The position numbers were made by a program, and so were the translations under genes. The notes under the pieces were generated by a model, which saw only the letters and a list, made by a program, of their open reading frames with translations, made no database searches and was not told the DNA's origin. From the UHGV virus genome UHGV-0039337: 64,000 nucleotides of DNA, one strand, 5' to 3'. Shown in pieces: positions 27,034-58,713 of this stretch. How positions within the stretch are numbered: position 1 is the first letter of the stretch; every line of letters begins with the position of its first letter. The DNA comes from a virus.

Positions 27034-28836
27034 ATGGCAGATAATAACTTATTTTATGGTAAAGGTATTACCGTAGCTTCTGGTTTTGACCTTGGAGCAA
27101 AATCACCTTTAGACCATCGTTTAGTTGTACAAACTGCTGAAGAACGTGATGCTCATATTACAGGAAACAGAGCTTATCCTGGTATGTTAGTATACGTTAA
27201 AGATGAGGATAAAACATACAGATTTAATGGTACAGTTTTTGTTGAATTTGGTGTAACTGATTTATCTGAATATGCTAAGACTGCTGATGTTGAAAAGAAA
27301 ATAGCAGATGCTGTAACTAGCGGAACTATAGACTTAACAGCATACGCAAAAACTGCTGATATGAATAAAGCATTAGAAGGTAAAGTAGATAAAGTAGAAG
27401 GTAAGTCATTAATAGCTGATACTGAAATAACTAGATTAGCTGAAGTTAAAAATTATGACGATACTGAAGTTAAAGGACTTATAGATGGTAAAGCTGATAA
27501 GATTCATAAACATAGTTATAATGATTTAGACAATAAACCTGAAATACCAAGTATAGAAGGCTTAGCTTCTAAAACATATGTAGATGGCAAAGTATCAGAT
27601 TTAGTTAATGGTGCTCCAGAAGCAATGGACACTTTACAAGAATTAGCTAAAGCTATAACTGATCATCAAACTGTTTATGACGCTTATGTTCAAACTGTGT
27701 CTAATAACTTAGCTAAAAAAGTTGACATAGTAGAAGGTAAATCTTTAGTTGCTGATACTGAAATAGCTAAGATACATGAACATGCAAACAAAGAAGAATT
27801 AGATAAAATAGAAGTTGGAGACAAAGCTAAATGGGATTCTAAAGCAGATGGCGATCACAACCATGATGGTATATATTTAAAAGAAGTACCAGCTGAATAC
27901 ATAACTGAAGAAGAACTAGCTGCTGAAGGATTCTTGAAAGAACATCAAAGTTTAGTAGATTATGCTAAAACAGCTGATGTTGATACTAAATTAGCTGGAA
28001 AAGCTCCACTTGAACATACTCATAGCTATAACGATTTAGAAGATAAACCAGTAATACCTGATGTATCTGGATTTGCTACTAAAAAAGATGAAGATGCTAG
28101 AGAAAAATTTGTTACAGATGTATTAACAGTAAATACATTAGGTGGTATAACTGCTGGTGCGGATTTAAATGGACTAACAGTAAAAGAAATATTAAATAAA
28201 TTATTATATCCATATGTAAAACCTATTGTATCTGCAAAAGGTAATCCTAATGGTGGTATATTTGAAAAAGGTAAAAATCAAGTAATTACTAATGTACAAG
28301 TAAGTGTTACTAAAAAATCTGAAAAGATAACTAAAATAGAAGTATTTGATGGGGCTAATTCTCTAGGAGTACAAGAAGGAGATGCTGTAGCTGGTGGAGG
28401 TACTTACAACTTCACAGTTAATATTCCAGTAGAATCTGTTAATAAAACTTTAACAGCTAAAGTTACTGATGCATCTAATACAGTAACTAGTGCAAATACA
28501 GCTTCATTTACTTTTGTATATCCATATTATACAGGTATAGCTGCTGAAGATGCTGAAATAAACGAAGAGTTTGTAAAAGGATTAACTAAGAAAGTAGAAG
28601 TTAAAGGTAATAAGACTGTAGCTTATACATGTAATAATGAAAAAATGGTATTTGCTTATCCAAAAGCTTATGGTGTTATAAAACAAATATTTGACCCTAA
28701 TAATTTTGATGTTACAGGAACATTTACAAGAACTGAAGTTTCAATTACAGGATTAGATGGAACTGCTCAAGCATATTATGTTTATACTAATGGTGCTTCA
28801 ACAGTAGATAACTTTAATATGAGATTTAACTATTAG
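27034..28836 (+). CDS. tail fibre paralog / receptor-binding protein (600 aa)
   Basis: AAAGGAGTGA SD. N-terminal anchor domain shared with 28854. Repeats HKHSYNDLDNKPEIPSIEG and HTHSYNDLEDKPVIPD. C-terminal domain shared with 26017. Confidence 0.6.
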   Translation: MADNNLFYGKGITVASGFDLGAKSPLDHRLVVQTAEERDAHITGNRAYPGMLVYVKDEDKTYRFNGTVFVEFGVTDLSEYAKTADVEKKIADAVTSGTIDLTAYAKTADMNKALEGKVDKVEGKSLIADTEITRLAEVKNYDDTEVKGLIDGKADKIHKHSYNDLDNKPEIPSIEGLASKTYVDGKVSDLVNGAPEAMDTLQELAKAITDHQTVYDAYVQTVSNNLAKKVDIVEGKSLVADTEIAKIHEHANKEELDKIEVGDKAKWDSKADGDHNHDGIYLKEVPAEYITEEELAAEGFLKEHQSLVDYAKTADVDTKLAGKAPLEHTHSYNDLEDKPVIPDVSGFATKKDEDAREKFVTDVLTVNTLGGITAGADLNGLTVKEILNKLLYPYVKPIVSAKGNPNGGIFEKGKNQVITNVQVSVTKKSEKITKIEVFDGANSLGVQEGDAVAGGGTYNFTVNIPVESVNKTLTAKVTDASNTVTSANTASFTFVYPYYTGIAAEDAEINEEFVKGLTKKVEVKGNKTVAYTCNNEKMVFAYPKAYGVIKQIFDPNNFDVTGTFTRTEVSITGLDGTAQAYYVYTNGASTVDNFNMRFNY

Positions 28837-32947: not shown

Positions 32948-35569
32948 ATGGCAGGCAAGAAAATAAGTGATTTAACTGAAGTACTTACAGTTGATACTGA
33001 AAATGATTACGTCGTTATAGCAAGAAGTGGCGACAATAAAAAATTAAAAGTAGCCAATATGATGGGTTCTACTAATGTTGGCGAAAATTACGTTGATTTA
33101 TTAGGAGAAGACGGTACTACAGAATATAGATTAATAATAGATCAAAATGGAAAGGCTCAAGTATTTCCTAAAGAATGCGTAACAGGACATAAATATGAAC
33201 CAGGAGACAATTTAAAAAAACCTTTAAAATCTGATAAAGTAGTAGTAGGAGCTGTAGGAGCAAAATCTGGAGACGGAGAAAAGAATGCTTCAGTAGTTGA
33301 TGTTCATGGTATAGTTATTAATCAAGCATTCGGTGGAGATGGATATTCTGCTACAGATATGAAACAAGGTACTGCATGTAGTCATAGTTTTGTTGAATTA
33401 TATAATTGTTCAAATAATCTAAATGTAAACTTATGTGGACTTTATTTACACTATAGAGGCTTCGGCTCTACAGGTACTTTAGATGCTACTTGGAAGACAT
33501 TGCCTTTAAGAGGGTTAGTGCCTCCTCGTACTTCATTTTTAATAAGAGGTAAACAACATGCGCCATTCTATAGTGATATGGTTAACTGTAAATTATATGA
33601 TTATGATCAAGAATGGATAGATGAAGCAACCAATGAACCATTAGCTTTTTCTAGTAAAGGATTCGCTTTTTATTTAAGTACTAATTCAGAACCTCCAACT
33701 ATCAATCCTGAAGCAGTTACTGTAATTAAAAATGATGCAGGTGTTGTTACTAGCACTACATATGATCAATACTATGTAGACTTATTAGGATGCGGAGGAG
33801 CTGGTGTAGATACTGCGCCACCTGCATATAATAAATTCTTTTGGAATTGTTTAAATAAAGATACAGGTGTTAGACGTATTAACTTTAGAAATAATAAAAA
33901 TAATAAATATGATACAGAACCTATAAATTATAGAACATGTGAAAAATTAGAAGATATCAAACCTAGAAGCTTACGTGATGGTTTATGGGAACAAATAGAA
34001 GATAAAATAAAGCCTAATCTTAATGCACCTAATTTAATAAATATAACTTTCGGTAAAGTTGCAACTACTAGATATTTTACTTGGCAATCAATAGTGACTA
34101 ATAGTGGATACATAAAATATAGAAAAATAAAAAATGAATCTAATGCAGTTGAAATAGGTGCATGGAAACAAGTAGAAAGTGAACGTGAAATAGTCAATAA
34201 TCATAATATTTTTATGACAATACATAGAGTTAAATTAACAGATTTAGAGCCAGGTTTATATGAATACAAATGCGGAGAAGAAGGATATTGGTCAGACATA
34301 GAACAAATGGAAATAAGAAAATATGATGATAATTCTACAATAAAAATATTATGGACTACAGATCAACAAGGTTATACAGAACAAGAATATAAAGCTTGGG
34401 ATAGTTGTGTTAAAGCGATAAGAGAACAAGATGGCGTGTATAATGATAAAGGATTACCTGTATTCGATTTTCATTTAAATACAGGAGATATATCACAAAA
34501 TGCAAGCAATTTATATGAATGGCTATATTATAGTAAATATGCAGGAGAATTCTGTAAAAACATACCTCATATGATAACTTGCGGTAATAATGATTTAGTT
34601 GAAAAGAACTATGGATTTGCATTTGAACATTATTCAACTTATGAAGATGTCCCTATGCTTAACAGTATAGCCGGTACTACTGTTTCTACTGTAGATTGTC
34701 CTATGGTATCAACTTATTCATTTGATATAGGAAATGTTCATTTTGTATCATTAAATTCAAATCAAGAATTAATGTATAATGATTATGGAATAAATGCTAC
34801 TATATTTTTAGACAAACAAGCTCGTTTTTTAGATAAAGATTTATGGGAAGTATGTCAAAGACAAACTAAACCTAAATGGATAATAGTGCTTGCTCATCTT
34901 TCTCCATTTACAGTTACTAGAGCTAAAAGATTACAGCATTGGATAGCTGTAGTAGAACATTATGAAATAGATTTATTTTTATGTGGTCATAATCATACTT
35001 ATTCAAGATCTATTCCAATTAAATGCGGATATGAAAAAACAAAATATGAAGATGCAATAAGTGAAAAAAATTATAATACATATGTAACTAAAGCTGCTAC
35101 ATATACTGAAGTAGCTGAAACTAAAAAAGATAACCAAACTGAAATAGACAGAACTGCTAATCCTACTCATGGTACTTATTATGTAATGTTCCAAGCGGGT
35201 GGTGCTAAACAAAGTGGTAAAGAAAAAGCTATAGATATAACACTGCCAGCATTTACTGGATTAGATTCTAAACATAAAAGTATTAACGCTCCTAATAGAC
35301 CATGGTGGTATGATTATAATGGAGCTTTACCTGTTCAACCATGTTATTCTACTATAGACATAACAAAAGATGCCATAACTATGAAAATGAATTATGTTAA
35401 AGATGTAGAATCAATAGCAAAAGATACTGGAATTATTTCAATAAGTAATTATAATTCAGCTAAAAATACAGTAGTTAATTTTGATAATTTAACTATTAAT
35501 CATGCTGATAGACAACCTGCTTATAGAACAGGTGGAGTTACTGCTCCTTATTATGATGAAAATAAATAA
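32948..35569 (+). CDS. virion-associated lamin-tail-domain (LTD) plus calcineurin-like metallophosphoesterase protein (873 aa)
   Basis: GGGAAGGAGA SD. SHSFVELYNCSNNLNVNLCGLYLHYRG..FLIRG matches the LTD signature (fvELyN....vdLsGw.L). Downstream are metallophosphatase motifs in canonical order: ILWTTDQQG, GDISQN, CGNND, and GHNHTYSR (the GHxH motif). Confidence 0.6.
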   Translation: MAGKKISDLTEVLTVDTENDYVVIARSGDNKKLKVANMMGSTNVGENYVDLLGEDGTTEYRLIIDQNGKAQVFPKECVTGHKYEPGDNLKKPLKSDKVVVGAVGAKSGDGEKNASVVDVHGIVINQAFGGDGYSATDMKQGTACSHSFVELYNCSNNLNVNLCGLYLHYRGFGSTGTLDATWKTLPLRGLVPPRTSFLIRGKQHAPFYSDMVNCKLYDYDQEWIDEATNEPLAFSSKGFAFYLSTNSEPPTINPEAVTVIKNDAGVVTSTTYDQYYVDLLGCGGAGVDTAPPAYNKFFWNCLNKDTGVRRINFRNNKNNKYDTEPINYRTCEKLEDIKPRSLRDGLWEQIEDKIKPNLNAPNLINITFGKVATTRYFTWQSIVTNSGYIKYRKIKNESNAVEIGAWKQVESEREIVNNHNIFMTIHRVKLTDLEPGLYEYKCGEEGYWSDIEQMEIRKYDDNSTIKILWTTDQQGYTEQEYKAWDSCVKAIREQDGVYNDKGLPVFDFHLNTGDISQNASNLYEWLYYSKYAGEFCKNIPHMITCGNNDLVEKNYGFAFEHYSTYEDVPMLNSIAGTTVSTVDCPMVSTYSFDIGNVHFVSLNSNQELMYNDYGINATIFLDKQARFLDKDLWEVCQRQTKPKWIIVLAHLSPFTVTRAKRLQHWIAVVEHYEIDLFLCGHNHTYSRSIPIKCGYEKTKYEDAISEKNYNTYVTKAATYTEVAETKKDNQTEIDRTANPTHGTYYVMFQAGGAKQSGKEKAIDITLPAFTGLDSKHKSINAPNRPWWYDYNGALPVQPCYSTIDITKDAITMKMNYVKDVESIAKDTGIISISNYNSAKNTVVNFDNLTINHADRQPAYRTGGVTAPYYDENK

Positions 35570-35590: not shown

Positions 35591-38500
35591 ATGCCAATTA
35601 AGAAAAAAATAAATGGTAGATGGGTCAATGTTACTGGTTCATCTACCAGTACTAATAATACTAAAGCAATCAATATTGGTATCACAGATTCATTAGGATT
35701 TTATGATACTGACAATGTGGAAGGCGCATTAGCAGAAATAGGTAATGATTTAAAAAATACTAATGCTAATATAGAAAAGGTAGCAGCAGAGCTCAAAGAC
35801 CATAAACAAAATCATCCAGGTGGAAGTGGCAGTAGTGGAGGAGCTACCTTACCTACAATAACTTCTGATTTTAAAACAACAACTTCAGATGGCAAATCGA
35901 ATATAGAAATTCCTATATTTTTTACTTCTCCTTCTTTAGGTGATGGTACTGCATATATTCTTGTTAAGAATGTAGAAATAGCTACACAACAAATACAACA
36001 AGGAAATAACACTATTATTGTGCCACCTATTGGAGCTGGTAAAAATATAAATATATCATTATATGTTAAAGATAGAGCAGGACTTATTTCTAATCAATTA
36101 ACGTGGTTAATTACTGCTGGCGGTATTGAGATGACAATAATTACTGATACAAAGGCAGATTACGATATAAATAACAGAATAGTTATATCTTATACTATAA
36201 GCTGTATTTCTAACGAAGATATATATGCTCACTTTGAAATAGATGGAAAAGATAATCAAGTTAAATCTATTAACGGATACAATAGCTATCAGTTAACTGG
36301 ATTAACTGTAGGTGTTCATAAGATTTCCTACTGGGCAGAATCTGGTGATTATAAAACCACTAGTAAATCTTTTAACTTAATAATTGTAAATGAAGATACA
36401 TTAATAGTATCTACTGAATTTGATTCAGATAAAGAATATGAAAGCGGTATACCTATTAGCATACCTTACAGAGTTTCTATAACTAAAGACGAAGACTTTA
36501 CTGTTAAAATGTATATAGACGGTAATTTAGATAAAACTATAGTTACTAGACCTACAAGTTTATATTGGTCTATAACTTCATTAGATATTGGCAATCATAC
36601 ATTGAAAATAGAAGCTATTAATGATTCGTTAAATCTTAGCAACTCTATAGAATTTGCATGTCATGTTATTGAAGGTGAATATACTAGAGTGCAGCCTGTA
36701 ATGGATGCTTCTTTACTGTGCTGGTTTGATGCCACAGACAAAACTAATAATGATAGCGATAGAGATGTATGGACAGATAAAATATTAGGTAATAAGGGTT
36801 ATTTACATAATTTTAACTATGGTTCTAACGGATGGATAACAAACGATTCTACTCATACTTCTGAACTAGTAATGGATGGTACATGTTATGTTGAAATAGA
36901 CATGACACCTTTTAAAGATAATTTTAAAAACGGTGGTACTATAGAATTGGTATTTAAAGTTAGAGATGTTGGAAATGTTGATGCAAGAGTTTTAGATATA
37001 ACAGATACAATTTCTCCTTATAAAGGCATTTATATAGACACACGTGATGCATATTTAGCAACTGAAGCAAGAACGACAACTGCCTCTATAGGTGAAGATG
37101 AGTATATACATGTTATGTATGAAATAGATAGAACTAATAAATATGCACATGTAATAGTAAATGGAGTAATTACTGGTTCATGTAAACTTAGTGATAGTGG
37201 TATAGGTACATCTGCTGTATTAGAATCTATAGCGCATACTCAAAAGATTTATCTTAATAGTCAAAAAGGCACAGATTTATTTGGTTCATGTGAAATTAAA
37301 CATTTTAGAATATATGATAGAGCATTAAGTTTTGATGAAATACTACAAAACTATTTATCTACTATTGAAGACATAAAAGTTCAAAAATCTAAAGTTGATT
37401 TTAATGATCCACTTAAGAATATAATGCCAATAATGAATATAACATGCGATCCTGAACTATTTTCTATAATGACAGATGTTAATCAAATAGAAGTTGCTAT
37501 GACTTATACATCTCCTAATGCAGATTTGTATGGACAAACATTGACAACAGCTACTAAGTGTTTAATGTATTGGCAAGGTACGTCTTCAAAAGGTTATAAT
37601 ATACATAACTATAATTTATATCTAAGAGATGACAATAGACAACCTATAGCTTATAGTCCATATCCTAATTGTATTCCTCAATCATTATTTTGCTTAAAAG
37701 CAAATTTAATGGAATCTACAAATGCTCATAACGTAGGTCTTGCAGGCTATGTTAGAAAATATTTATATACTCATAATAATCCGGCGCAAGATGCAGATCC
37801 ACGTGCATCTAGAGTTATTCAGGGATTTCCTTTCTTGTTATATATAAATGGTGAATTAGCTGGCGTATATGATTTTAATTTAGATAGATATTCGTACACA
37901 GCATTTGGCTATGATTTACCAGCTCATAAAAATAAATGCAAAGTATATGAAATATCTGCCAATACAAACAAAACTGCAGGAGCATTTATACCATGGAGTG
38001 CAGATACAGGAGTAGATGAATGGACATGGTATAAAAATGACTTTGGTGGTATATATCCAGAATCTATACAAAACTCTGTTAATGATGATTTTACTGAATT
38101 GAAAAACTTAATTAAGTTTGTACATGATTCAAATGATGAAAAATTTGTTACTGATTTTGAAACATATTTTGATAAAGAATCAGTTATCAGATATTACTTA
38201 TTTGTAATGGTTTTAGGCCTTGTTGACTCATTAGGTAAGAATGCTAAACTTGTTACTTATGATGGTGTCAAATGGTATTTTGAGTTTTATGATATGGATA
38301 CAGCCATGGGTCTAGATAATACTGGTGCAGTTAAATTTGATGTTGATATAGAAATGAGTATGGGCAAATTCAATACTGCAGAATCTACACTATGGGTAAG
38401 ATTAGATAGATTATTTCATGACGATATAGTTAATGAATATAACATGATGAGAAATCAAAACTTAACAGCTGAAAAAATATATGAGTGTATATTCACTGAC

Positions 38501-41500
38501 CAAATAGATAAAATACCTGAAAGTCAATATAATCTTAGTACTCAAAAGAAATATCTTGACACAGGTGAATATATTATGATGTCTAATGGTAACAGATATT
38601 ATGGACTTAAACGTTGGATAAAAGACAGAATTTTATATTGCGATACTTTATTTAATTACACGCCTTCTATTTCAGATTTTATTACAATACGTTCAGGTAT
38701 AACTGGAGAAGCTTATATTGATATCGAAACTTATTCTCCTATGTATTTGACTGTTAGATGGCGTAATGTAATTGACGGAACAGCTGACCAAAAACTTAAG
38801 ATAGGAAGAAATCAAAAAGTTAGATTCCAAGCTGAAGGTTTAAATATACCTTCAAACAAAGACCAAGAAATTATAATTTATGGAGCTAAACATATAAAAA
38901 GCTTTGGTCAATTAGACGGATTAATTCCTATGTATTTATATTTAAATAACGCTACAAAATTAACTAATGTAGAATGCCCGAATGATTCAGAATTATTAGT
39001 TGCTGAAATAGCTAATTGTAGTTATCTACAAAAGGTAGATTTTAGTGGCTGTAGTAGTTTAGGTACATTAGAAAAATATCAAGTTCTCGATGTTAGCGGA
39101 TGTAATAACTTAAGATATTTAAATGCATATGGTACGGTGTTAACGTCTATCAGCACTAATCAATCTGGTGGAAACTTAGTTGAAATGTATGTGCCTAAGA
39201 CATTACAAACATTATCATTGCAAAATCAATATAGTTTAAAAGTTATTGGTATACCTGGTGCGAGTACTTTAGAAAGCACTAAGCTATATGATTTAAAACA
39301 AAACGCTAGTAATATATCAAGCTTTACTCTTATCAATTGTCCTTTAGTTGAAAGATTAACTTATGCTTCAGATTTTACAGTAAACAGTAATTTCTTTGAT
39401 AATTTTACAAATGAACGTAGATCAGCAGAACTTAATTATTTAACTTATACTAAAAATGAGTGGAAACGTTTAATGTATTGGGGAAATGGTTTAGCTAACT
39501 GTTATAATATCAACATAGAAAACAGTTGTCATAATATACCTAGTATGAGCTTTAGAGGTATAAGTAATTTACAGAGTTTGAAACTTAGAGCAATGCCTGG
39601 ATTAAAAACTCTAATGCTTGGAGCTAACTGTTGTGGATACAGATATAATAATGATCCTACTTATGAATCTAATAAATATGATACAGTTGGAGAATTTGAT
39701 TGGGATACATTAAGTATAATAGATTGTCCTAATATAGAAGAATTTAGAATACATGAAATGTATCCATATAATTGGAATGAAGGTTCTAGTGGTAACTTAA
39801 CATATTTTACCTTTAAACCTGGAACAGAATCTATTAACTTAGCTGCTAAATTTCCTAACTTAAAAATATTTGAGTGTAATTGTGCTACACAAAATATACA
39901 TCAAATAATACTTCCTCAATCATTAAAAACTATTATGACTTGTGCATGGAATAATAGACATGATGAGGGTTTTCCTAATGAAGTTAAGATAGAACAATTT
40001 AATATAGATAGTATCTATTTTGAAGGAGAGCATGAAGAAAGCTATACTGGTATAGATTTAGGAAACCACGCGTTACAAAATGTATGTATAATTGCTCCTT
40101 ATGCTTCAGAGTTAATAGGAGTTAATATCACAAATACACATGTAAATCCTATATTTAATGATTTAAAAGAAGCAGATAATGAAAATAGACCATTTGTTAC
40201 TCCTAACGGTAGGATAGATGTATCTAAATTTAAATGGAAAAATATATCTGACTGGTTTGCGTATATAGATTTTACTAAGGGAAAATGTGAAGTTATAACT
40301 CCAACTAACTGGAAAACATTCTTGGTAGGTATACAAAAGGCTAGTAGAATGTTTTATCATTGTACAAATCCTGATTTTACTTGGGAATTTGCTATGGAAT
40401 TCTTTTCTAAGATAAATACCTATTCTGATTTAAGTTATATGTATCAATATGCACAATTAGCAGATCAAGCTGATTTTGATACTGCTGCTGTAGTAATGGA
40501 AAACAAATATAATATAGGCGGATATAACTATAATATAAAACCTTTTCTAGGAACTAATCTTAAATTCGTTAAATCATTTACTTTAACAGCATGTGATGGT
40601 GCATATGCTACATTTAGTGGATGCAGCAGTTTAATTAAAGTAGGAGATTGTAAATTTACAGGATCTAGATCTAGTACATGGGGAATAAGTTATTTATTTA
40701 ATAACTGTATTGCATTAGAAGAAGTAGGAAATATAACTTCTTATGCTAATAAAAATAGTAGTTCTACTATACCAATGGATAATACATTTGAAGGTTGTAA
40801 TAAGTTAAAGAAAATAGGCACATTAGATATATCAGTTAGCAGTATGAACTGTGCTTACTATGATTGTTCTGTATTGGAAGACAATGGATTAAGTTTACCT
40901 TATATGGGAAATTGTGTAGATGTAAGAAATGCATTCTTTGGATGTTATACTTTAACTGCTATTAATTTTGAAACACTTGAAAAGGTTATATATGCTGATG
41001 CATTCTTGCGTAATTGCTATGGATTGTTATCAATACATTTACCAAGCATCAATCGTGATCATCCATTACAAGAATTCTCTAGTGCATTTTCTGGATGTAC
41101 TGCATTAAAGACTATAACTATAGAAGGAGACACATTACCTATAGGATTAAGAAATATGAGCTATGCTTATTCTAATTGTCCATCATTAACTAACGTAATA
41201 CCAGTTCCTTCAGATTTTGTAAATGATGTAGACATGAGTGGATGTTGTAGTCGTTGTAGTTCATTAACAGATGATGCTATATATAAAGAAATACCATTTA
41301 GAGTTGTTAATACCAATTATATGTATGAACGTTGCAATAGTTTAATTTCTCCAACAGTTAATTTATTATGTGACAATGTAACTTCAAAACAAATGTTTAG
41401 ATATTGTGAAAATATGACTAGTTTAACAGTCAATTATAATGGACGTTTATTGCGTGATACTACTTTCTTTGCAGAATATTGCAACAGATTACAAACCGTT

Positions 41501-42040
41501 AATTTTAAATTCCCTAGCGCACTTGTAATGCATGAATACTATGGAACTGGAGTTACTTATTATAATATGTTCCAATATTGTGGTAGTTTATCTATAGTAA
41601 ATCTTAACATGTCTAAATTAGCAGATACTAATTCTAAAGCAGATTTTGGTAGCATGTTCTATGAAGATAAATATATTACAGAAATTCATGGATTAGATTT
41701 TGCTTATCTTAAAAAACCTATACGTAATTTTACTTCTAGTGGTCAAAGTCCTTACGATTGGCATGACACTTCTATTACATATGGTGGTACATATGAAAAC
41801 TTAACAACTTTAGATGTTACAGGTAAATTAACAACAAGCTATAACTTTAAAAATATTGCTACCATGGTTCATACTAAAGTTATTTTACGACACTTAGATA
41901 AAGTAACAAATGAAACATTAGGATTGACATATAATATAGTTGATGCCATAGATGATGAAAAAACAGAATCAGTAGATCAAGAATTAAAAGAATTAGCTAA
42001 TACAGCATTAAGCAATGGTTGGTCATTCATTATAGTATAA
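35591..42040 (+). CDS. giant multi-domain fibre/adhesin (2149 aa): Ig-like repeats, LamG/ConA-like jelly roll, CotH kinase-like domain, C-terminal BspA-type leucine-rich repeats
   Basis: TTAGGAGTTGA SD. LamG-like region about nt 36700-37350. CotH-like region about nt 37590-38650 (FLLYINGELAGVYDFNLDRYSYTAFG and WYFEFYDMDTAMGLDNTG fit the CotH pattern vNGey.GlY.l.E and D.D.tfG). From about nt 40540 to 41700 there are repeated units such as FEGCNKLKKIGTLDIS, AFFGCYTLTAINFETLEKVIYADAFLRNCYGLLSIHLP and FSSAFSGCTALKTITIEG, characteristic of BspA/TpLRR-type leucine-rich repeats. Confidence 0.6.
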   Translation: MPIKKKINGRWVNVTGSSTSTNNTKAINIGITDSLGFYDTDNVEGALAEIGNDLKNTNANIEKVAAELKDHKQNHPGGSGSSGGATLPTITSDFKTTTSDGKSNIEIPIFFTSPSLGDGTAYILVKNVEIATQQIQQGNNTIIVPPIGAGKNINISLYVKDRAGLISNQLTWLITAGGIEMTIITDTKADYDINNRIVISYTISCISNEDIYAHFEIDGKDNQVKSINGYNSYQLTGLTVGVHKISYWAESGDYKTTSKSFNLIIVNEDTLIVSTEFDSDKEYESGIPISIPYRVSITKDEDFTVKMYIDGNLDKTIVTRPTSLYWSITSLDIGNHTLKIEAINDSLNLSNSIEFACHVIEGEYTRVQPVMDASLLCWFDATDKTNNDSDRDVWTDKILGNKGYLHNFNYGSNGWITNDSTHTSELVMDGTCYVEIDMTPFKDNFKNGGTIELVFKVRDVGNVDARVLDITDTISPYKGIYIDTRDAYLATEARTTTASIGEDEYIHVMYEIDRTNKYAHVIVNGVITGSCKLSDSGIGTSAVLESIAHTQKIYLNSQKGTDLFGSCEIKHFRIYDRALSFDEILQNYLSTIEDIKVQKSKVDFNDPLKNIMPIMNITCDPELFSIMTDVNQIEVAMTYTSPNADLYGQTLTTATKCLMYWQGTSSKGYNIHNYNLYLRDDNRQPIAYSPYPNCIPQSLFCLKANLMESTNAHNVGLAGYVRKYLYTHNNPAQDADPRASRVIQGFPFLLYINGELAGVYDFNLDRYSYTAFGYDLPAHKNKCKVYEISANTNKTAGAFIPWSADTGVDEWTWYKNDFGGIYPESIQNSVNDDFTELKNLIKFVHDSNDEKFVTDFETYFDKESVIRYYLFVMVLGLVDSLGKNAKLVTYDGVKWYFEFYDMDTAMGLDNTGAVKFDVDIEMSMGKFNTAESTLWVRLDRLFHDDIVNEYNMMRNQNLTAEKIYECIFTDQIDKIPESQYNLSTQKKYLDTGEYIMMSNGNRYYGLKRWIKDRILYCDTLFNYTPSISDFITIRSGITGEAYIDIETYSPMYLTVRWRNVIDGTADQKLKIGRNQKVRFQAEGLNIPSNKDQEIIIYGAKHIKSFGQLDGLIPMYLYLNNATKLTNVECPNDSELLVAEIANCSYLQKVDFSGCSSLGTLEKYQVLDVSGCNNLRYLNAYGTVLTSISTNQSGGNLVEMYVPKTLQTLSLQNQYSLKVIGIPGASTLESTKLYDLKQNASNISSFTLINCPLVERLTYASDFTVNSNFFDNFTNERRSAELNYLTYTKNEWKRLMYWGNGLANCYNINIENSCHNIPSMSFRGISNLQSLKLRAMPGLKTLMLGANCCGYRYNNDPTYESNKYDTVGEFDWDTLSIIDCPNIEEFRIHEMYPYNWNEGSSGNLTYFTFKPGTESINLAAKFPNLKIFECNCATQNIHQIILPQSLKTIMTCAWNNRHDEGFPNEVKIEQFNIDSIYFEGEHEESYTGIDLGNHALQNVCIIAPYASELIGVNITNTHVNPIFNDLKEADNENRPFVTPNGRIDVSKFKWKNISDWFAYIDFTKGKCEVITPTNWKTFLVGIQKASRMFYHCTNPDFTWEFAMEFFSKINTYSDLSYMYQYAQLADQADFDTAAVVMENKYNIGGYNYNIKPFLGTNLKFVKSFTLTACDGAYATFSGCSSLIKVGDCKFTGSRSSTWGISYLFNNCIALEEVGNITSYANKNSSSTIPMDNTFEGCNKLKKIGTLDISVSSMNCAYYDCSVLEDNGLSLPYMGNCVDVRNAFFGCYTLTAINFETLEKVIYADAFLRNCYGLLSIHLPSINRDHPLQEFSSAFSGCTALKTITIEGDTLPIGLRNMSYAYSNCPSLTNVIPVPSDFVNDVDMSGCCSRCSSLTDDAIYKEIPFRVVNTNYMYERCNSLISPTVNLLCDNVTSKQMFRYCENMTSLTVNYNGRLLRDTTFFAEYCNRLQTVNFKFPSALVMHEYYGTGVTYYNMFQYCGSLSIVNLNMSKLADTNSKADFGSMFYEDKYITEIHGLDFAYLKKPIRNFTSSGQSPYDWHDTSITYGGTYENLTTLDVTGKLTTSYNFKNIATMVHTKVILRHLDKVTNETLGLTYNIVDAIDDEKTESVDQELKELANTALSNGWSFIIV

Positions 42041-42051
42041 GGAGTGATTAT

Positions 42052-42324
42052 ATGAGAGTATATAAAAACAGTTTAGGTATAACATGTATAGAACCAGCTG
42101 ATGGATATTTGCTAAGTAAGAACGGACAAACTTTTAAAAAAGCATGCTTAGGTAAAAATGATAGAGCTGAGTTATATACAGAAATAAAAAATGAAGATGT
42201 TGGACATGAAATTCAAAATACTACCTTTGATGTATCTGATAACATGATATTAATAAGTCCAAACGGAAAACGATTTAAATTAGTCGTCAATAACGATGGC
42301 TCATTAAGTACTAAAGAGATATAG
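42052..42324 (+). CDS. small hypothetical protein (90 aa)
   Basis: ATG 42052 after AAGGAGTGA (track start 42019 lies inside the previous gene). Confidence 0.4.
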   Translation: MRVYKNSLGITCIEPADGYLLSKNGQTFKKACLGKNDRAELYTEIKNEDVGHEIQNTTFDVSDNMILISPNGKRFKLVVNNDGSLSTKEI

Positions 42325-42798: not shown

Positions 42799-44265
42799 AT
42801 GGCTAATACTAAATTAATAAATTGCGATCAACTTCAAATTTCATTACAGAAAGTTAAAGATTATGTAGATGGTAAGTTTGCAGTAGCTGATCATAATCAC
42901 AATAATGTTTATTATACGCAAACACAAATAAACAATAAAATAAATAATATTAATTCTGCAATAGGCGGTAAAGCTAATGCAACACATTCACATAAATCAA
43001 GTGATGTTACAACCATGGGAGGATATTCTAAACCAGATTCTACTGGTGCTATAGCTACTACTGATACTTTAAATGCTGCAATTGGTAAATTAGAAACAGC
43101 ATTAGATGGTAAATCTAGCTCTAGTCATAATCATAATGGGGTTTATTTACCTATAAATGGTACAGCAGCTAGCGCTACTAAATTAGCTACAGCTAGAACT
43201 ATAAATGGTATAGAATTTGACGGTACTAAAGCTATAACTATAACAGCTAACCCTAATGCTCATAATCAGGCTTCAAATACAATAAATGCAATGACAGGAT
43301 ATGCTATAGCTAAAGCTTCTGCAGCAATAGCTACTACAGATAGTTTAAATACTGCTATAGGAAAACTAGAATATGCAATAGGACAAAAACAAGCTAGTGG
43401 TTCTTATGCTTCAGCCAATCATAATCATGATAACAGATATTATACAGAAACAGAAATAAATACTAAAATATCTGATTTACAAACTGCTGATACAAATAAT
43501 TTAGCTAATGCTAAAGCATATACTGATGCTGCTATTGATAAAATAACCGGAGAAGGCGTATCGGAAGCTCTTGATACATTAAAAGAATTAGGAGATGCAT
43601 TAAATAACGATGCTAATTTTGCAAGTACTATGACTACTGCATTAGCTGGTAAAGCAGATTCAAACCATATCCATGATGTTGCTACAACTACTACTGATGG
43701 ATTTATGTCATCTGATATGGTAACTAAATTAAATGGCATAGCTAATAATGCTAACAATTATGTGCATCCAACTACTGTTGGTAATAAACATATTCCTGCT
43801 GGTGGAGCTACAGGACAATTTTTAGGTTATTCAGCTGCTGGCACTGCTCAATGGGTAGCTAATCCTAATACAGATAGCAAAGTAAATACTGCAGCAGATA
43901 CAACTAGTACTAAATTATATTTAACTGGTGCTACTGGAGCTACTACTGCTGGATTGAAATATAGTTCATCTATTTTCTTTAGTGCTAAAGATGGTACCAT
44001 AACTGCTTCAGGGTTTAATGGCAAAGCTACTAGTGCCGGTTCTGCCGATACTGCTTCTGCTTGTTCTGGTAATGCAGCATCTGCTAGTAAAGTAAATAGT
44101 TCATTAACTATACAATTTAATGGTGTTAATAATAAAACATTTAATGGTAGTTCAGCACAAACAGTTAATATAACTCCTGCTTCAATAGGAGCTGCTACAA
44201 CTGCCGATACTGCTAAAGCAACAGACAAAGAAGTAAGCGATATGCTAACTACTATTTTTGGATAA
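42799..44265 (+). CDS. tail fibre protein with Phage_fiber_2-type repeats (488 aa)
   Basis: AAAGGAGTGCTAAA SD. KLATARTINGIEFDGTKAITITA matches the tail-fibre repeat known from coliphage fibres (laTaRtinGvsFDGsaNit). Spaced HNHN / HSH / HNHNG / HNHD motifs. GEGVSEALDTLKELGDALNNDANFAS motif shared with the 47228 and 27034 genes. Confidence 0.6.
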   Translation: MANTKLINCDQLQISLQKVKDYVDGKFAVADHNHNNVYYTQTQINNKINNINSAIGGKANATHSHKSSDVTTMGGYSKPDSTGAIATTDTLNAAIGKLETALDGKSSSSHNHNGVYLPINGTAASATKLATARTINGIEFDGTKAITITANPNAHNQASNTINAMTGYAIAKASAAIATTDSLNTAIGKLEYAIGQKQASGSYASANHNHDNRYYTETEINTKISDLQTADTNNLANAKAYTDAAIDKITGEGVSEALDTLKELGDALNNDANFASTMTTALAGKADSNHIHDVATTTTDGFMSSDMVTKLNGIANNANNYVHPTTVGNKHIPAGGATGQFLGYSAAGTAQWVANPNTDSKVNTAADTTSTKLYLTGATGATTAGLKYSSSIFFSAKDGTITASGFNGKATSAGSADTASACSGNAASASKVNSSLTIQFNGVNNKTFNGSSAQTVNITPASIGAATTADTAKATDKEVSDMLTTIFG

Positions 44266-44320: not shown

Positions 44321-46939
44321 ATGGCAAATAATAAAAATATTACATTTGATCAACTTCAAACTTCTCTTAAAAAAGTAAAATCAGCTATCGATGGTAAAGC
44401 AAATACCAGTCATGGAAACCATGTTCCTACTACTGGTACAACCGATAACGCTACATATTTAAGAAATGATAATTCATGGCATAAAATAGTGCCTTCAGAT
44501 ATAGGTGCAGCCCCTTCTGTTCATGGGACACATGTCACATATTCTACAACTGCTCCGTCAGCTCCTGGAACTGCTTCTGCAGGTACTGCTGATAATGTAT
44601 CAAGAGGAGATCACGTACATCCTCTTCAAACTACAATAAGCGGTAATGCCGGTAGTGCTACTAAACTTGCCAATGCTCGTAATTTAACTGTAGGAAATAC
44701 AAAAAAATCATTTAATGGTACAGCTGATGTATCATGGAGTTTAAATGAAATAGGAGCAGCTGCTTCTGGTCATACTCATAATTGTTTTGCAATTAAAGGC
44801 GAAAATACTATATCCGGTATTGCAAATGATACTACAGAAAAATGGAAAGATCATGGTAATTCTGTACACTGGTATACAAAAGCAAATCAAATAACAGGTC
44901 AGCCTTCTCCATATGGTTTCCTTACTAACTGGGCTTCAGGTGGAGACGTTCATCAATTATGGATGACACAAAGTTCTGGAAACATGTTTCATAGAGGTGG
45001 TAATAATGATGGATGGTATGGTACTTGGAGAACAATATTAGATGAAAATAATTTTACTGCTTATTCTCCTACGTTAAGTGGTGGAGGAGCAATGGGTATA
45101 TGGGCAATTAGCGTTACTGGTAACGCAGGTACAGCTACTAAACTTGAAGAATCAAAAACTATAAATGGAACTAGTTTTGATGGTTCTAGTAATATAACTA
45201 CTGCTAATTGGGGTACTGCTAGAACTATTACTATAGGAAATAAAAGCAAATCAGTTAACGGTTCTGCAAATGTATCATGGACATTAGATGAAATAGGTGC
45301 TTTTCCGTTAACTGGTGGTATGTTGAGTAGTGGAGTAGGTATTGTAAATACTTATGGCGAAGCATGGTTTGATATTGGAGCCAATGATACATATGTATAT
45401 AATAAAAATAGCAATAAATCATTACAATTAAAGCATACTGGTGAATTAGTTTATGACGAAACATTTATTTTAGCTAATGAAGACGAAGGCGGTAAAATAA
45501 CTATAAAATCTACTGCTAATAATAATAATACAACAAATTATGGTGTTGGCGGTAGTGATATATATATAGATAACGTTAAAACAGGTAAAGCTTTGCAATT
45601 AAAAAATGACGGAACATTAAGATATAATGATAATATAATTTTAGATTCTAGCAACTATTCTTCTTATACTACTAGAAGATGTTGCGTAGTAGGACAAACA
45701 GGAAACTCTACAAGTAAACCTTATTATCTATTTGCTTATATAATTGCAAATGGATCTAACATGGATAGAGAAATAACATTTAAAGTAAGCACAGGATATG
45801 ATAATATTAAAGCTTCTGGTATATTAAGAGCACATTTAAGAACTAATTCAAATAATTATGTACAGAATGCACAATTATATTGGGAATATGCTAATACTGG
45901 TATAGAAGAAAGTAATTTTATCTTAGCATATGGTACAGGAGTGAATCCTACAGTTGAATTATGGGTTAAATGTGATGTAGCTTGGATGATGTATCATTTT
46001 GAAGTAATACAAGAAATTGCAAGAGACGAACATTATTTAGATCCTAAATGGATGTTGCAAACTTGTTGTCAAGAAGGTTATGCTGATTCTCCTACTAGTG
46101 GATATACTCAAGTGCCTAGTACAATTTTACAATTAAAAAATAGTGCACAATATGCATCAGCACTAAATGATGTTCAATATGCATCAGCATTGGATAATGC
46201 TCAATATACATCAACATTAGATAATGATATACAAATAGAAATAAATCCTTCATCAGGTAATGATAATGTTGAATTAGCAGATGGTGCAGTATATAAAACA
46301 ATTGCAGGAGTACTAGATGCATTACCTAAATTTTTAAACGGTAAACGAGTAAATATCTGGATGCGTGCTGATATAACTGAAAATGCAGACTTTCAAAATT
46401 ATACTAGTGGACAAATAAAATTTTACCTAGATGGACACACATTATACGGATATATTAGAAACTATATGAGTAGTGTTAAAGTGACTGTATATGGTGGATG
46501 GCCAGGTACCGAAAAAGGACATGTTGGAATAATTCACCCACCTGTAGGATGCGCAGTTGCCGGAAGAACAGGTAGCTTTATTTCACAAGAAAACTCCTCA
46601 ATGGATGCTTATAGCGTAAAAATATATGGTAGTGATAATCTGAATTCTTCTGGAACTTCCAATACTGTTGGTGTTATAGGAGACTCGTTTGCTACAATCT
46701 ATACTGAAAATGTTCAGTTTGTAAATTGTGATATAGGATTTAGGGGAAGTACCGGTGCTAGAATACATGATGCGAATTCAAGCGGTGTATGTAGTCAATA
46801 TGGTTATCAAGTTACAAGCGGTGCTTTCATAACAATTGATAACGCTGCCCACTGCGGTGGCAAAACTGCAAATACTGACCAAACATTGCCAGGGCAAATA
46901 ATAGCACACGCTAGCGCTACATATGCAAGCGGTAATTAA
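44321..46939 (+). CDS. tail fibre protein (872 aa) with the same repeat family and a C-terminal distal domain
   Basis: AAAGGAGATATTAG SD. Repeats KLANARNLTVGNTKKSFNGTADVSWSLNEIGAA and KLEESKTINGTSFDGSSNITTANWGTARTITIGNKSKSVNGSANVSWTLDEIGA. Internal tandem QYASALNDV / QYASALDNA / QYTSTLDND repeats. Gly/Thr-rich C-terminal domain. Confidence 0.6.
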   Translation: MANNKNITFDQLQTSLKKVKSAIDGKANTSHGNHVPTTGTTDNATYLRNDNSWHKIVPSDIGAAPSVHGTHVTYSTTAPSAPGTASAGTADNVSRGDHVHPLQTTISGNAGSATKLANARNLTVGNTKKSFNGTADVSWSLNEIGAAASGHTHNCFAIKGENTISGIANDTTEKWKDHGNSVHWYTKANQITGQPSPYGFLTNWASGGDVHQLWMTQSSGNMFHRGGNNDGWYGTWRTILDENNFTAYSPTLSGGGAMGIWAISVTGNAGTATKLEESKTINGTSFDGSSNITTANWGTARTITIGNKSKSVNGSANVSWTLDEIGAFPLTGGMLSSGVGIVNTYGEAWFDIGANDTYVYNKNSNKSLQLKHTGELVYDETFILANEDEGGKITIKSTANNNNTTNYGVGGSDIYIDNVKTGKALQLKNDGTLRYNDNIILDSSNYSSYTTRRCCVVGQTGNSTSKPYYLFAYIIANGSNMDREITFKVSTGYDNIKASGILRAHLRTNSNNYVQNAQLYWEYANTGIEESNFILAYGTGVNPTVELWVKCDVAWMMYHFEVIQEIARDEHYLDPKWMLQTCCQEGYADSPTSGYTQVPSTILQLKNSAQYASALNDVQYASALDNAQYTSTLDNDIQIEINPSSGNDNVELADGAVYKTIAGVLDALPKFLNGKRVNIWMRADITENADFQNYTSGQIKFYLDGHTLYGYIRNYMSSVKVTVYGGWPGTEKGHVGIIHPPVGCAVAGRTGSFISQENSSMDAYSVKIYGSDNLNSSGTSNTVGVIGDSFATIYTENVQFVNCDIGFRGSTGARIHDANSSGVCSQYGYQVTSGAFITIDNAAHCGGKTANTDQTLPGQIIAHASATYASGN
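46145..46228 (+). repeat. three tandem ~30-nt coding repeats inside the 44321 gene
   Basis: caatatgcatcagcactaaatgatgtt / caatatgcatcagcattggataatgct / caatatacatcaacattagataatgat. Confidence 0.6.
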
Positions 46940-47227
46940 ACGACCGATAGTACTTCAGCCTAATACTTATTGCGACTAAGATTACTATAATTAAATCTAA
47001 TAATGGTATTATAAAAGGAGTTTTAATATTCAATCTACCTATATAATGCAGCAAACTATGCAGTATATTCTGGTAGCTTAACAATGAAAATTACTTACAC
47101 AGAATAATGTTTAGTTAAATTAACTAAGCAAAGTAATAATATATATGAATGCAGTAATAGGATTAGTCAAATATTAGCTAGTCCTATTATTATGTATATA
47201 TTATTTACAGAGAAAAGGAGAAATATA

Positions 47228-47767
47228 ATGGCAAATTTAACATTTCTAGAAGCATTAAATAAATCATTAATTGCTACTAAAAAATATGTTGATAACTCAG
47301 TAGCTGGAATAGTGGATTCAGCGCCAGAAACTTTAAATACTTTAAAAGAATTATCTACAGCTTTAGGAGATGATCCTAATTTTGCTACTACTGTTGCAAC
47401 TAATATAGGAAAAAAAGTAGATAAAATAGAAGGGAAAACATTAACAGCTAATGATTTAACAAATGAATTAAAAGCTAATTACGATGCTGCATATGCTCAT
47501 AGTCAAGTGGCACATGCTCCAGCTGATGCACAAAAAAATAGTGATATAACTAAAGATGAAATAGAAGCTAAATTAACTGGTGATATAAGTTCTCATACAC
47601 ATAGCCAGTATTTAACAGAACATCAAAATTTGGATGAATATGCTCCTAAGAAATATGTGGATGATAAAATGGCAAATTTAAGTATAGTAAAAATATCTAA
47701 AACTGATTTTGAAGCATTAACTACAAAAGATGCTAATACTTTATATTTAGTATTAGAAGATTCATAA
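47228..47767 (+). CDS. short tail fibre protein (179 aa)
   Basis: ATG 47228 after AAAAGGAGAAA (track start 47192). PETLNTLKELSTALGDDPNFATTVATNIGKK and a C-terminal TDFEALTTKDANTLYLVLED are typical short-fibre motifs. SSHTHSQY is an HxH motif. Confidence 0.5.
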   Translation: MANLTFLEALNKSLIATKKYVDNSVAGIVDSAPETLNTLKELSTALGDDPNFATTVATNIGKKVDKIEGKTLTANDLTNELKANYDAAYAHSQVAHAPADAQKNSDITKDEIEAKLTGDISSHTHSQYLTEHQNLDEYAPKKYVDDKMANLSIVKISKTDFEALTTKDANTLYLVLEDS

Positions 47768-49511: not shown

Positions 49512-50906
49512 GTGATAATAATGAAAAATCAATTACTTAATATAGCTTATTTGCGTTGTAGTACAGATGACCAAGATGTAGCACATCAATTATCAAGTAT
49601 AGAAAAATTCTGCGAAAGTCAAAATATAGTTATAGACAAAGTAATTAAAGACGAAGGCGTAAGTGCTTATAGTAAAAGTGCATATGAAAGAAAAGGCTTT
49701 AGTGAAGTAATACATTTAGTAGAAGAAAACAAGGTTAATAAACTTATATTATTCGAATCTTCTAGATTATCTAGAAATTTTCATGAAGGACAAAATTTAA
49801 TTAAATTCTTTAGTGACAAAAGAGTGGAGATATATAGTGTAGTAGATGGTGGTATAATTAATGCTACTGAAGTAGATGAATTATTAAATAGTATTAGGTA
49901 TTGGCTTAATCAAAAAGCCAGTAAAGAAACAAGTGATAGAATTAAAAGTCAAAAAAAGTTAGCTAAATCCAAAGGAGAATTTCTGGGACATCCTGTTCCA
50001 CTAGGATTTAAAATAGAAAACAAGCATGAAATTATAGACGAAGATAAGCGTAATTTTATTATTGAATTATTTAATACTTATATTAATCAAAGTTCTAGAG
50101 CATGTATAGATTTATTAAAAACTATAGGAATCAAAGCTAATCATCAAACGCTATTGCAAAGGATAAAAAATGATAAATATATACAAATAGTAGGAAAAGA
50201 TACTTTTAACAAAGCCCAAGAAACCATACAATCTAGAAGATGTAATAAAGGAAATAATACCAGAACTTTAAACAGGAGTAATATTTTATATGAGGGTTTA
50301 TTATACCATCTATGTGGTAGCAAACTTACAATAGATAAAAATAGAAAAGGTGAACCTGTTTTTAGATGTAGAAGATGCAAACATAATTTAGATATAAATA
50401 TTAAAAAATCTTTTATTGGTAATCCTTTAATGAACAATATTAACAAAGATATGTATGAAATAATCAATAATTTAGATAGGAATAAATTAGAAGAGAAGTA
50501 TAAAGAACGTAATAACAAACAACGCTCAATAATATCTTACAAAATACACGAACTAAAAGCATCTATTAAAAGCAAGAAAAAATCTTATGCTTTAGCTAAT
50601 AATAAATTAGAAAAAATATTAATATCTGATATGGATGATTCACTTATATCTACTGTGGCTAATACTGTTAACAATATAAAAAAAGAGATAGAAGAATTAG
50701 AAAAGGAATTAAATATTGAGCAAGAAAAAATAGATACTATAGACGAACAAGCGAAATTTAATGCTGGTTTAATTAATAAAATAATCAACTTAAAAGATGT
50801 GTATATAAACGGAAGTGACAAGAAAAAGAAGGCTATACTTAACTTTATGATAGATAAAGTAATAGTTTATGACATTGATAAGTTTGATATTTTTTTAAAA
50901 ATATGA
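49512..50906 (+). CDS. large serine recombinase (resolvase catalytic domain, recombinase domain, zinc ribbon, coiled-coil tail)
   Basis: N-terminus LNIAYLRCSTDDQDVAHQ carries the serine-recombinase catalytic motif (R-x-S-T-x-x-Q). A Cys-x2-Cys-x16-Cys-x2-Cys zinc ribbon (CGSKLTIDKNRKGEPVFRCRRCKHN) and a K/E-rich coiled-coil C-terminus follow. At 464 aa it falls in the large-serine-recombinase class (phiC31 Int / TnpX / SpoIVCA), not the small Gin/Hin invertases. The start may be ATG 49521 rather than GTG 49512. Confidence 0.8.
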   Translation: MIIMKNQLLNIAYLRCSTDDQDVAHQLSSIEKFCESQNIVIDKVIKDEGVSAYSKSAYERKGFSEVIHLVEENKVNKLILFESSRLSRNFHEGQNLIKFFSDKRVEIYSVVDGGIINATEVDELLNSIRYWLNQKASKETSDRIKSQKKLAKSKGEFLGHPVPLGFKIENKHEIIDEDKRNFIIELFNTYINQSSRACIDLLKTIGIKANHQTLLQRIKNDKYIQIVGKDTFNKAQETIQSRRCNKGNNTRTLNRSNILYEGLLYHLCGSKLTIDKNRKGEPVFRCRRCKHNLDINIKKSFIGNPLMNNINKDMYEIINNLDRNKLEEKYKERNNKQRSIISYKIHELKASIKSKKKSYALANNKLEKILISDMDDSLISTVANTVNNIKKEIEELEKELNIEQEKIDTIDEQAKFNAGLINKIINLKDVYINGSDKKKKAILNFMIDKVIVYDIDKFDIFLKI

Positions 50907-58148: not shown

Positions 58149-58200
58149 ATTTATTCACTTACCGGTAATATTTCAATGAATGAAAGGAGTGATAATTCAT

Positions 58201-58713
58201 ATGTCAGATAATTTAATACATCCTTATTACAATCATGGTTATGCCCGTTATGATATAGATATTAATGATGTAATAGCTGGTCTTAAAAAAGCCGGATATA
58301 TATTAGATGATTCAGATAACGATACGGATGATAATTTTGATAATTTAGACTCTAGCTTAAGGCTTGAAGTGTTAAGCACTCGTGGCACACGTTGTAATAG
58401 TACAGGATTTAATACAATATTATACCCTAGATTATATAAAAATAATATAGATATAACAGATGAAGTACCTGTTAGTAATTTTAAATGGAGAAGAGTTAGT
58501 GGCAATAGTGAAGTAGCTCGTCTTGAGGATGCCGAATGGAATTTACGTTATGCTAATGGTTCTAAAGAATGTTACGTTACAAAAGATGATATAAAACGTA
58601 ACAGTACATTTACATGTTTATATGTAGAATATGAATATCAAGATGTAGCTTATGTTAATACAGCGTATAAAGCTTATATAAATAATGCAAATTTAAATGG
58701 TGGTGATAATTAA
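58201..58713 (+). CDS. hypothetical tail protein (170 aa)
   Basis: ATG 58201 after GAAAGGAGTGA (track start 58180 lies inside the SD). Stop overlaps the next start (TAATG). Confidence 0.4.
   Translation: MSDNLIHPYYNHGYARYDIDINDVIAGLKKAGYILDDSDNDTDDNFDNLDSSLRLEVLSTRGTRCNSTGFNTILYPRLYKNNIDITDEVPVSNFKWRRVSGNSEVARLEDAEWNLRYANGSKECYVTKDDIKRNSTFTCLYVEYEYQDVAYVNTAYKAYINNANLNGGDN

Follow-up and report, generated by a model that had tools for sequence, protein, structure and literature searches.

A giant CotH/leucine-rich-repeat tail-fibre-type protein of a gut phage and its upstream phosphoesterase partner

What use does a phage make of a kinase fold that is embedded in a tail-fibre-type protein? 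The question is raised by an open reading frame (ORF) at 35591..42040 (+) of virus genome UHGV-0039337, of which a stretch of 64,000 nucleotides (the window) was analysed. The frame runs uninterrupted from ATG to stop and encodes a giant CotH/leucine-rich-repeat (LRR) protein of the tail-fibre type, 2149 aa in length, with a match to phrog_9915 (E 1.5e-116). An earlier note, made from the sequence alone, had described it as a tail protein carrying LamG/concanavalin A (ConA)-like, CotH-like and BspA-type LRR domains, and had proposed that the CotH-like part serves either as a receptor-binding module or as a kinase at the cell surface. It missed a conserved phosphoesterase gene directly upstream. 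Shown here are the strict conservation of the CotH active site, the constant company of lectin and LRR modules in which the CotH domain is found, and the co-inheritance of the phosphoesterase in many lineages.

Domains and active site of the CotH protein

Two strings had been quoted as CotH hallmarks, ...GFPFLLYINGELAGVYDFNLDRYSY... and ...EFYDMDTAMGLDN..., and both are present in the translation. On the single sequence, Pfam profile searches of the kind the note had suggested placed CotH (PF08757, aa 750-967) above threshold, with 53.5 bits against a cut-off of 23.8. The other two profiles ended narrowly under their gathering scores, LRR_5 (PF13306, aa 1714-1819) with 25.7 bits against 27.7 and Laminin_G_3 (PF13385, aa 472-584) with 23.8 bits against 27.6. 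Additionally, 19 diverse family members were scanned individually. CotH was matched in every one of them, Laminin_G_3 in six, the sialidase N-terminal lectin domain PF02973 in four and Mtd_N in one (P0103). LRR profiles were represented by DUF285 (PF03382; 8/19, best E 4e-121), LRR_5 (6/19, best E 5e-43) and LRR_EndoS (6/19), and LRR_8 and LRR_4 were matched as well.

A family profile built from 50 aligned sequences matched the BspA-type LRR structures 4fs7 (E 2e-12) and 4gt6 (E 2e-11), the latter being reached by the BspA-type region in a single-sequence search at E 3.5e-6. Weak matches of the same profile to classical LRRs (plant NLR, F-box) were found at profile positions ~1100-1320. The alignments were also used for two AlphaFold2 models. 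The model of aa 360-1110 had a mean predicted local distance difference test score (pLDDT) of 90.7 and a predicted template modelling (TM) score of 0.90. Its top fold matches in the PDB (Foldseek) were the Bacillus cereus CotH kinase entries 5JDA/5JD9 (E 2e-12, probability 1.00, target-normalised TM 0.70), followed by the lectin-like jelly rolls of clostridial neurotoxin Hc fragments (E 1e-10); dozens of viral LamG/ConA-like proteins were matched, too. The model of aa 1100-2149 (pLDDT 91.9) returned LRR solenoids only, namely Toll-like receptors, plant receptor kinases, internalin A and the BspA-like 4gt6/4h09.

Judged by sequence profiles and predicted folds, the LamG, CotH and LRR assignments are all correct. 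Pfam, family profiles and fold searches agree on the three domain types within one 2149-aa protein, and structure prediction yielded the CotH-kinase, jelly-roll and LRR folds that had been claimed. The LamG/ConA-like jelly roll covers aa ~363-598 (36677..37384, +) and the CotH-type atypical kinase domain aa ~599-1030 (37385..38680, +). A small beta-sandwich that is conserved in the family follows at aa ~1031-1105 (38681..38905, +; strands at model residues 671-746). BspA/TpLRR repeats had been noted for the C-terminal ~400 aa; the repeat type stands, and the extent had been set too short. The LRR solenoid is ~1000 aa long (aa ~1106-2000), a classical Cys-containing block preceding the BspA-type block. 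The classical solenoid and a middle LRR region occupy aa ~1106-1640 (38906..40510, +), and the BspA/TpLRR-type region, with 5.6% Cys and F..C..L repeats, occupies aa ~1641-2000 (40511..41590, +). The C-terminal cap (aa 2001-2149; 41591..42037, +) is variable and confidently modelled, with a conserved ...A..KGW motif at its end.

The catalytic core, consisting of the D879-S-L-G-K-N884 loop and the Y900-D901-M-D903 metal-binding motif, lies at 38225..38299 (+). In the deposited B. cereus CotH (5JD9), two Asp residues stand 23 positions apart, in ...NFDGFVHN... and ...PWDYD.... A profile of the phage CotH region aligned to 5JD9 over 213 columns with a weak E-value of 0.12 (hhalign), and hmmsearch with this profile, run against just 8 sequences, gave E 6e-4. 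Both alignments place D879-S-L-G-K-N884 on D-G-F-V-H-N and Y900-D901-M-D903 on W-D-Y-D. Residue numbers were transferred by way of the B. subtilis CotH sequence, its match to 5JD9 at E 9e-143 serving as validation. By this route and the B. cereus alignment, D879, N884, D901 and D903 correspond to B. subtilis D228, N233, D251 and D253. The B. subtilis variants D228Q and D251A are catalytically inactive (Freitas et al., PMC7821199).

The search for catalytic residues that the note had recommended was thus answered positively for D879 and D901, within the limits of weak alignment statistics. D879, N884, D901 and D903, together with K703 of the N-lobe, are invariant in 50/50 aligned relatives (30-82% identity). 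The motif D-x4-N...[YW]-D-x-D is kept in phage G gp353, a Clostridium CAG:221 prophage, NatCom_3357, Hankyphage p00, the CotH protein of a Klebsiella P2-like prophage and crAss002 gp20, while around it the overall sequence falls to about 22% identity in the distant phage lineages. LamG and CotH are the best-conserved domains of the whole protein. Pseudoenzymes usually lose catalytic and metal-binding residues. The invariance of catalytic-loop and metal-binding residues at ~30% identity, and across unrelated lineages, therefore favours an active enzyme over a binding module; the pattern would fit an enzyme under purifying selection, not a fold recruited for binding alone.

How common is this architecture? 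An exhaustive phmmer search with the LamG and CotH block (aa 360-1110) against 1.84 billion cluster representatives gave 2806 matches at E<=1e-3, of which 1856 remained at E<=1e-10 and 360 at E<=1e-30. The best of them are mostly 2000-3000 aa long and carry the block at about residues 350-1100, in the same layout. A word-indexed search found 234 relatives; the 120 of these 234 that were listed are mostly 2000-3500 aa long, with precomputed CotH, PF03382 and PF13306 annotations. Among the matches listed, the closest is the orthologue P0001 (97% identity), which is encoded on a 111.7-kb gut-metagenome contig. Names of the fold matches in BFVD were 'Spore coat protein H kinase fold', 'Internalin-like protein' (crAss-like phage), 'CotH kinase protein' and 'Leucine-rich repeat protein'.

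Related proteins have also been described. Benler et al. 2021 (PMC8008677) reported phage CotH-family kinase domains fused to hypervariable C-type lectins and called them 'currently unstudied'. Roux et al. placed a CotH-like kinase within a 2284-aa protein of PC_00012, a viral cluster of targets of diversity-generating retroelements (DGRs), and a 2024 preprint on Bacteroides DGRs described variable proteins of >2000 aa with CotH active-site motifs beside carbohydrate-binding motifs and LRRs. The 360 representatives at E<=1e-30 and these published phage proteins contradict the notion that the three modules are rarely seen together. The architecture class is already known, and the locus adds a member to a large, functionally open family.

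Phosphoesterase partner and tail setting

The partner gene (32948..35569, +) ends 21 nt upstream of the CotH gene and encodes 873 aa with an LTD-like domain, a purple-acid-phosphatase N domain (PF16656) and a calcineurin-like metallophosphoesterase domain (PF00149), both Pfam families being over their cut-offs. Metallophosphoesterase motifs I-V are conserved in five lineages, motif III in an unusual, family-specific GNND form. Phage G encodes a 'metallophosphoesterase' (gp352) directly before gp353, with 30% identity to the window protein over the full length (E 2e-93). In crAss002, the 'phosphatase' gp19 has LTD and Metallophos domains and shares 26% identity over 730 aa (E 2e-40). The same arrangement occurs on a 263-kb contig and in the Clostridium CAG:221 prophage.

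All 25 fetched loci were surveyed for the partner by tblastn, and for three of them (L014, L019, L022) the upstream sequence was too short to score. A same-strand partner lies directly upstream in the window, in phage G (L001), in L002 and L003, in one prophage represented by L006/L007/L015, in crAss002 (L008/L010), and in L011, L012, L013, L016, L017 and L018. By tblastn it was not found in Hankyphage (L004), NatCom_3357 (L005), the Klebsiella prophage (L009), L020, L021, L023, L024 and L025. Partner presence tracks the N-terminal match to the CotH protein. The match begins near residue 1-29 in partner-bearing loci (L001-L003, L006, L011-L013, L016-L018) and at ~85 or later in those lacking the partner. 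The N-terminal segment might therefore provide a link to the phosphoesterase, for example a docking site.

A description of the phosphoesterase and CotH pairing was not found in the literature searched; a Crassvirales review notes only 'phosphatase domains' among tail-spike annotations. Neither protein was matched in NCBIfam. A 90-aa ORF directly after the CotH gene (42052-42324, +) was considered as a third member of the module and rejected, as it is conserved only in the closest relative L002 (93% identity) and homologues were not detected 3' of the CotH gene in phage G, in crAss002, in the CAG:221 prophage, in NatCom_3357 or in Hankyphage. In phage G gp352 (L001 9338-11938), the N-terminal domain of a major tropism determinant, Mtd_N, scored 25.1 bits, below its cut-off of 26.3. 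Taken with the Mtd_N match in the CotH relative P0103, this is a hint of fibre-type N-terminal domains in both partners.

The N-terminal segment of the CotH protein (aa 1-85; 35591..35845, +) contains a conserved NVEGAL motif followed by a Gly/Ser linker and is a candidate virion-attachment region. Similarity of phage G gp353 to this segment starts at residue 26. A search for N-terminal paralogues among the other window proteins, as expected of a shared fibre anchor, found none. About 280 aa of beta-rich spacer modules follow (aa 86-362; 35846..36676, +). Two of these, aa 179-268 and aa 269-362 (36125-36676), are a tandem duplicate of ~90 aa (local alignment z 5.9; the score was reached by 0/300 shuffles), to which the preceding module, aa 86-178, has no detectable relation.

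ORFs with tail-fibre PHROG matches flank the CotH gene on both sides, and in relatives, too, the gene has a tail position, in agreement with the tail-protein context that had been proposed. In the Clostridium sp. CAG:221 prophage the gene order is tape measure, SPP1-type Dit, several tail genes, metallophosphoesterase, CotH protein, XhlA and amidase. Hankyphage has tape measure, hub and minor tail genes and then the CotH protein p00, whose C-terminus is the DGR variable repeat. In NatCom_3357, tape measure and Dit are followed by a large protein at the place of the tail-tip protein Tal, then by the CotH protein and, next, by holin and endolysin, and the 649-aa CotH protein of the Klebsiella P2-like prophage occupies a fibre slot between the baseplate genes and the tail-collar fibre gene. 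Compared with distant relatives, LamG and CotH have an identity of 0.41, the BspA-LRR region one of 0.13 and the C-terminus one of 0.11, and alignment coverage drops in the same direction. Conservation of the proximal and variability of the distal parts are usual for receptor-binding proteins. Gene position and gradient agree with a receptor-binding fibre. A distal end made of BspA-LRRs, which had been regarded as unusual, is typical of this family and simply its most variable region.

In the window, GC content is 26-34% and nearly every long ORF is on the + strand. The tail-fibre or tail-protein PHROG matches belong to ORFs at 27034-28836, 42799-44265, 44321-46939, 47192-47767, 50985-52934, 58180-58713, 58713-60197 and 60209-63175 (all +). 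With at least eight separate ORFs of this kind, the phage has an unusually rich set of fibre genes. For several neighbours of great length (1734 aa, 1444 aa), a family match was lacking altogether. Amid the fibre genes, a serine recombinase of 464 aa is encoded at 49512-50906 (+; Pfam Resolvase, 80.6 bits; phrog_95 'integrase', E 3.5e-47), which may be an integrase or a remnant of one. Fibre switching by this enzyme was considered and rejected, as convincing inverted repeats were not found and the genes are all on one strand. The ORF at 141-8561 (+) encodes a 2806-aa protein in which aa 733-878 match the DNA/RNA non-specific endonuclease family PF13930 (77.5 bits) and aa 1779-2327 match phrog_20474 'endolysin' (E 4e-159). 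The protein may serve as tape measure or in ejection, with nuclease and lysin modules as part of it. The CotH locus was also considered as a DGR target, which was rejected: the C-terminus is an LRR region and not a C-type-lectin variable repeat. A reverse transcriptase was not found among the scanned window ORFs of at least 300 aa.

GenBank phages contained no near-identical DNA. Relatives of the CotH protein were found, among the matches listed, on contigs of up to 276 kb, and the GTDB bins of their contigs were Clostridium sp. (72% identity, 104-kb contig), Bacilli, Clostridia, Lachnospiraceae and Ruminococcus. The source is probably a large low-GC (29%) phage of gut Firmicutes with a Clostridium-like host.

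Weighing the explanations

The explanation we favour, and to which we give about an even chance, is that the CotH protein is a tail-fibre or adhesion protein whose LamG and LRR parts bind the host surface, and whose CotH domain is an active phosphotransferase that, jointly with the co-inherited phosphoesterase, targets an envelope component bearing phosphate. On its side stand the folds, the conservation of both sets of active-site motifs, the pairing across lineages, the position in tail modules and the proximal-distal gradient. The short N-terminal segment would attach the protein to the virion. The beta-rich spacers and then the lectin-like LamG domain would lead to the putative CotH phosphotransferase, which would depend on adenosine triphosphate (ATP), and the variable BspA-type distal solenoid would most likely provide specific binding to the host surface. 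Together, the two gene products would bind and chemically edit the host envelope, CotH phosphorylating and the partner cleaving a phosphoester. Possible substrates include teichoic acid, the capsule and a surface protein; ATP could come from the cytoplasm or lysate at burst, or be extracellular.

Several points weigh against this explanation. Hankyphage, NatCom_3357, the Klebsiella prophage and others, among them several Lachnospiraceae-type loci, are without the partner, so that the CotH protein is not strictly dependent on it. The solved CotH structure 5JD9 was missed by sequence in all three ways, with the single sequence, the full-length family profile and a CotH-only profile, and only the fold search arrived at it. 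The statistics of the alignments from which the residue map was drawn are weak on their own, and the mapping therefore leans on the fold match and the agreement of the motifs. ATP, on which any kinase depends, is scarce outside cells, and we know of no tail-fibre kinase demonstrated so far. In phage G, the gp352/gp353 pair is surrounded by non-structural genes, a long way from the main tail module. Proteomic or imaging evidence of any family member in a virion was not found in the phage G and crAss002 literature (gp352/gp353, gp19/gp20).

A serious contender, if an unlikely one, is a CotH kinase that is active inside the infected cell and phosphorylates virion or host proteins late in infection, the fibre-like remainder serving as scaffold or targeting device and the phosphoesterase having a separate role, for example as a depolymerase. 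It predicts the identical conservation of the active site. ATP is abundant in the cell, and the phage G pair is among non-structural genes. Signal peptide, transmembrane segment and LPXTG motif were found neither in the CotH protein nor in the phosphoesterase; both would thus be released by lysis or as part of the virion, and the CotH protein would be cytoplasmic until lysis. The characterised CotH modifies Ser-rich structural proteins during spore-coat assembly in the mother cell (PMC7821199), and manipulation of host signalling by DGR-linked CotH proteins was proposed by Roux et al. Such a kinase leaves unexplained, however, the constant fusion to a lectin and a ~1000-aa LRR region with a hypervariable or DGR-diversified end, a hallmark of extracellular recognition, as well as the receptor-binding-protein slot in small phages. 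Moreover, a phosphoesterase co-expressed in the same compartment would oppose it.

Very unlikely, in our view, is a purely adhesive protein in which the CotH fold is a module that binds and does not catalyse, a role proposed for the Mucorales invasin CotH3, which binds GRP78. Members of the CotH family are indeed surface ligands in Mucorales (PMC9973265, family context), and cellulosomal extracellular CotH domains are without a defined activity; the scarcity of ATP outside cells would not trouble a module of this kind. The equivalents of the catalytic and metal-binding Asp residues, the loop Asn and the N-lobe Lys are nevertheless invariant in all 50 aligned relatives, and six distant phage lineages have retained them, a pattern that disfavours the receptor-binding role that the earlier note had considered for CotH. 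Hardly credible is a non-virion bacterial surface or secreted adhesin carried by the phage (lysogenic conversion), to which the BspA-type/DUF285 repeats typical of bacterial surface proteins, the name 'surface protein' given by the Joint Genome Institute to two relatives (among the matches listed) and the binning of some relatives' contigs with bacterial genomes would point, but which was rejected because the protein is without signal peptide, transmembrane segment or LPXTG sortase motif, its gene lies within a same-strand run of fibre genes (in the CAG:221 prophage, between tail and lysis genes) and the family also occurs in strictly lytic-type phages (phage G, crAss002).

The favoured explanation, a surface-acting phosphotransferase paired with a phosphoesterase, can be taken one step further. 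The pair may be a virion module of two enzymes that spreads by horizontal transfer, is common to Crassvirales, megaphages and temperate siphophages, and carries out an ATP-dependent 'phospho-editing' of surface polymers or receptors of the host; we regard this extension as quite improbable. One option would be the masking or destruction of receptors on cells undergoing lysis and on debris, where there is ample ATP. If true, a virus particle would for the first time have been shown to carry a kinase that acts on the cell exterior. The tail-fibre activities known to us so far are those of depolymerases, esterases and lysins, and if catalysis at the surface is true, phosphotransfer would join them as a new enzymatic class. 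The CotH giants occupy the receptor-binding position of abundant gut phages (Hankyphage, crAss-like) and are even targets of hypermutation by retroelements. As phage G (gp352/gp353) and crAss002 (gp19/gp20) both carry the pair and can be cultured, its function is directly testable.

Comparison with known systems

The closest named counterpart is phage G gp353, with 29% identity over aa 26-1282 (E 7e-148) and the best viral fold match (E 7e-60, query-normalised TM 0.79). N-terminal motif, beta modules, LamG, CotH and LRR follow each other in the same order, the C-terminus has a BspA-like match, and the metallophosphoesterase gp352 (30% identity) precedes it. Phage G gp353 differs in its own distal LRR region and in the location of the pair outside the main tail module; it is unannotated, and a discussion of it was not found in the phage G literature searched.

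The Bacteroides Hankyphage-type CotH proteins associated with DGRs (PC_00012 of Roux et al.; 'domain group 3' of the preprint) resemble the window protein in their size of >2000 aa, in the combination of carbohydrate-binding, CotH and LRR parts and in the receptor-binding slot. The Hankyphage protein shares 23% identity over aa 375-1254 and keeps the catalytic motif. In contrast to the window protein, which ends in BspA-type LRRs, these proteins end in a C-type-lectin variable region that is mutated by the adjacent retroelement, and in Hankyphage the phosphoesterase partner is missing. Bacteroides phage crAss002 shows the same two-gene order, gp19 'phosphatase' and then gp20 'transferase/internalin-J, leucine rich repeat', and gp20 has the CotH catalytic motif followed by LRRs. 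It is, however, a Crassvirales podophage of a Gram-negative host, identity is only ~22%, and the CotH domain of gp20 is under Pfam detection.

Bacillus CotH, the spore-coat kinase (5JD9/5JDA, PF08757), has the same fold and the same catalytic-loop and metal-binding motifs. Whereas it is a stand-alone enzyme of ~360 aa in the mother-cell cytoplasm, with the Ser-rich coat proteins CotB and CotG as substrates, the CotH domain of the window protein shares 12% identity with it and is embedded in a 2149-aa fibre among lectin and LRR modules. Finally, the BspA/TpLRR surface proteins of gut bacteria (4fs7, 4gt6, 4h09, 6mlx) have the repeat type of aa ~1641-2000. These bacterial proteins are secreted or anchored, whereas the window protein is without export or anchor signals and is encoded in a phage tail module.

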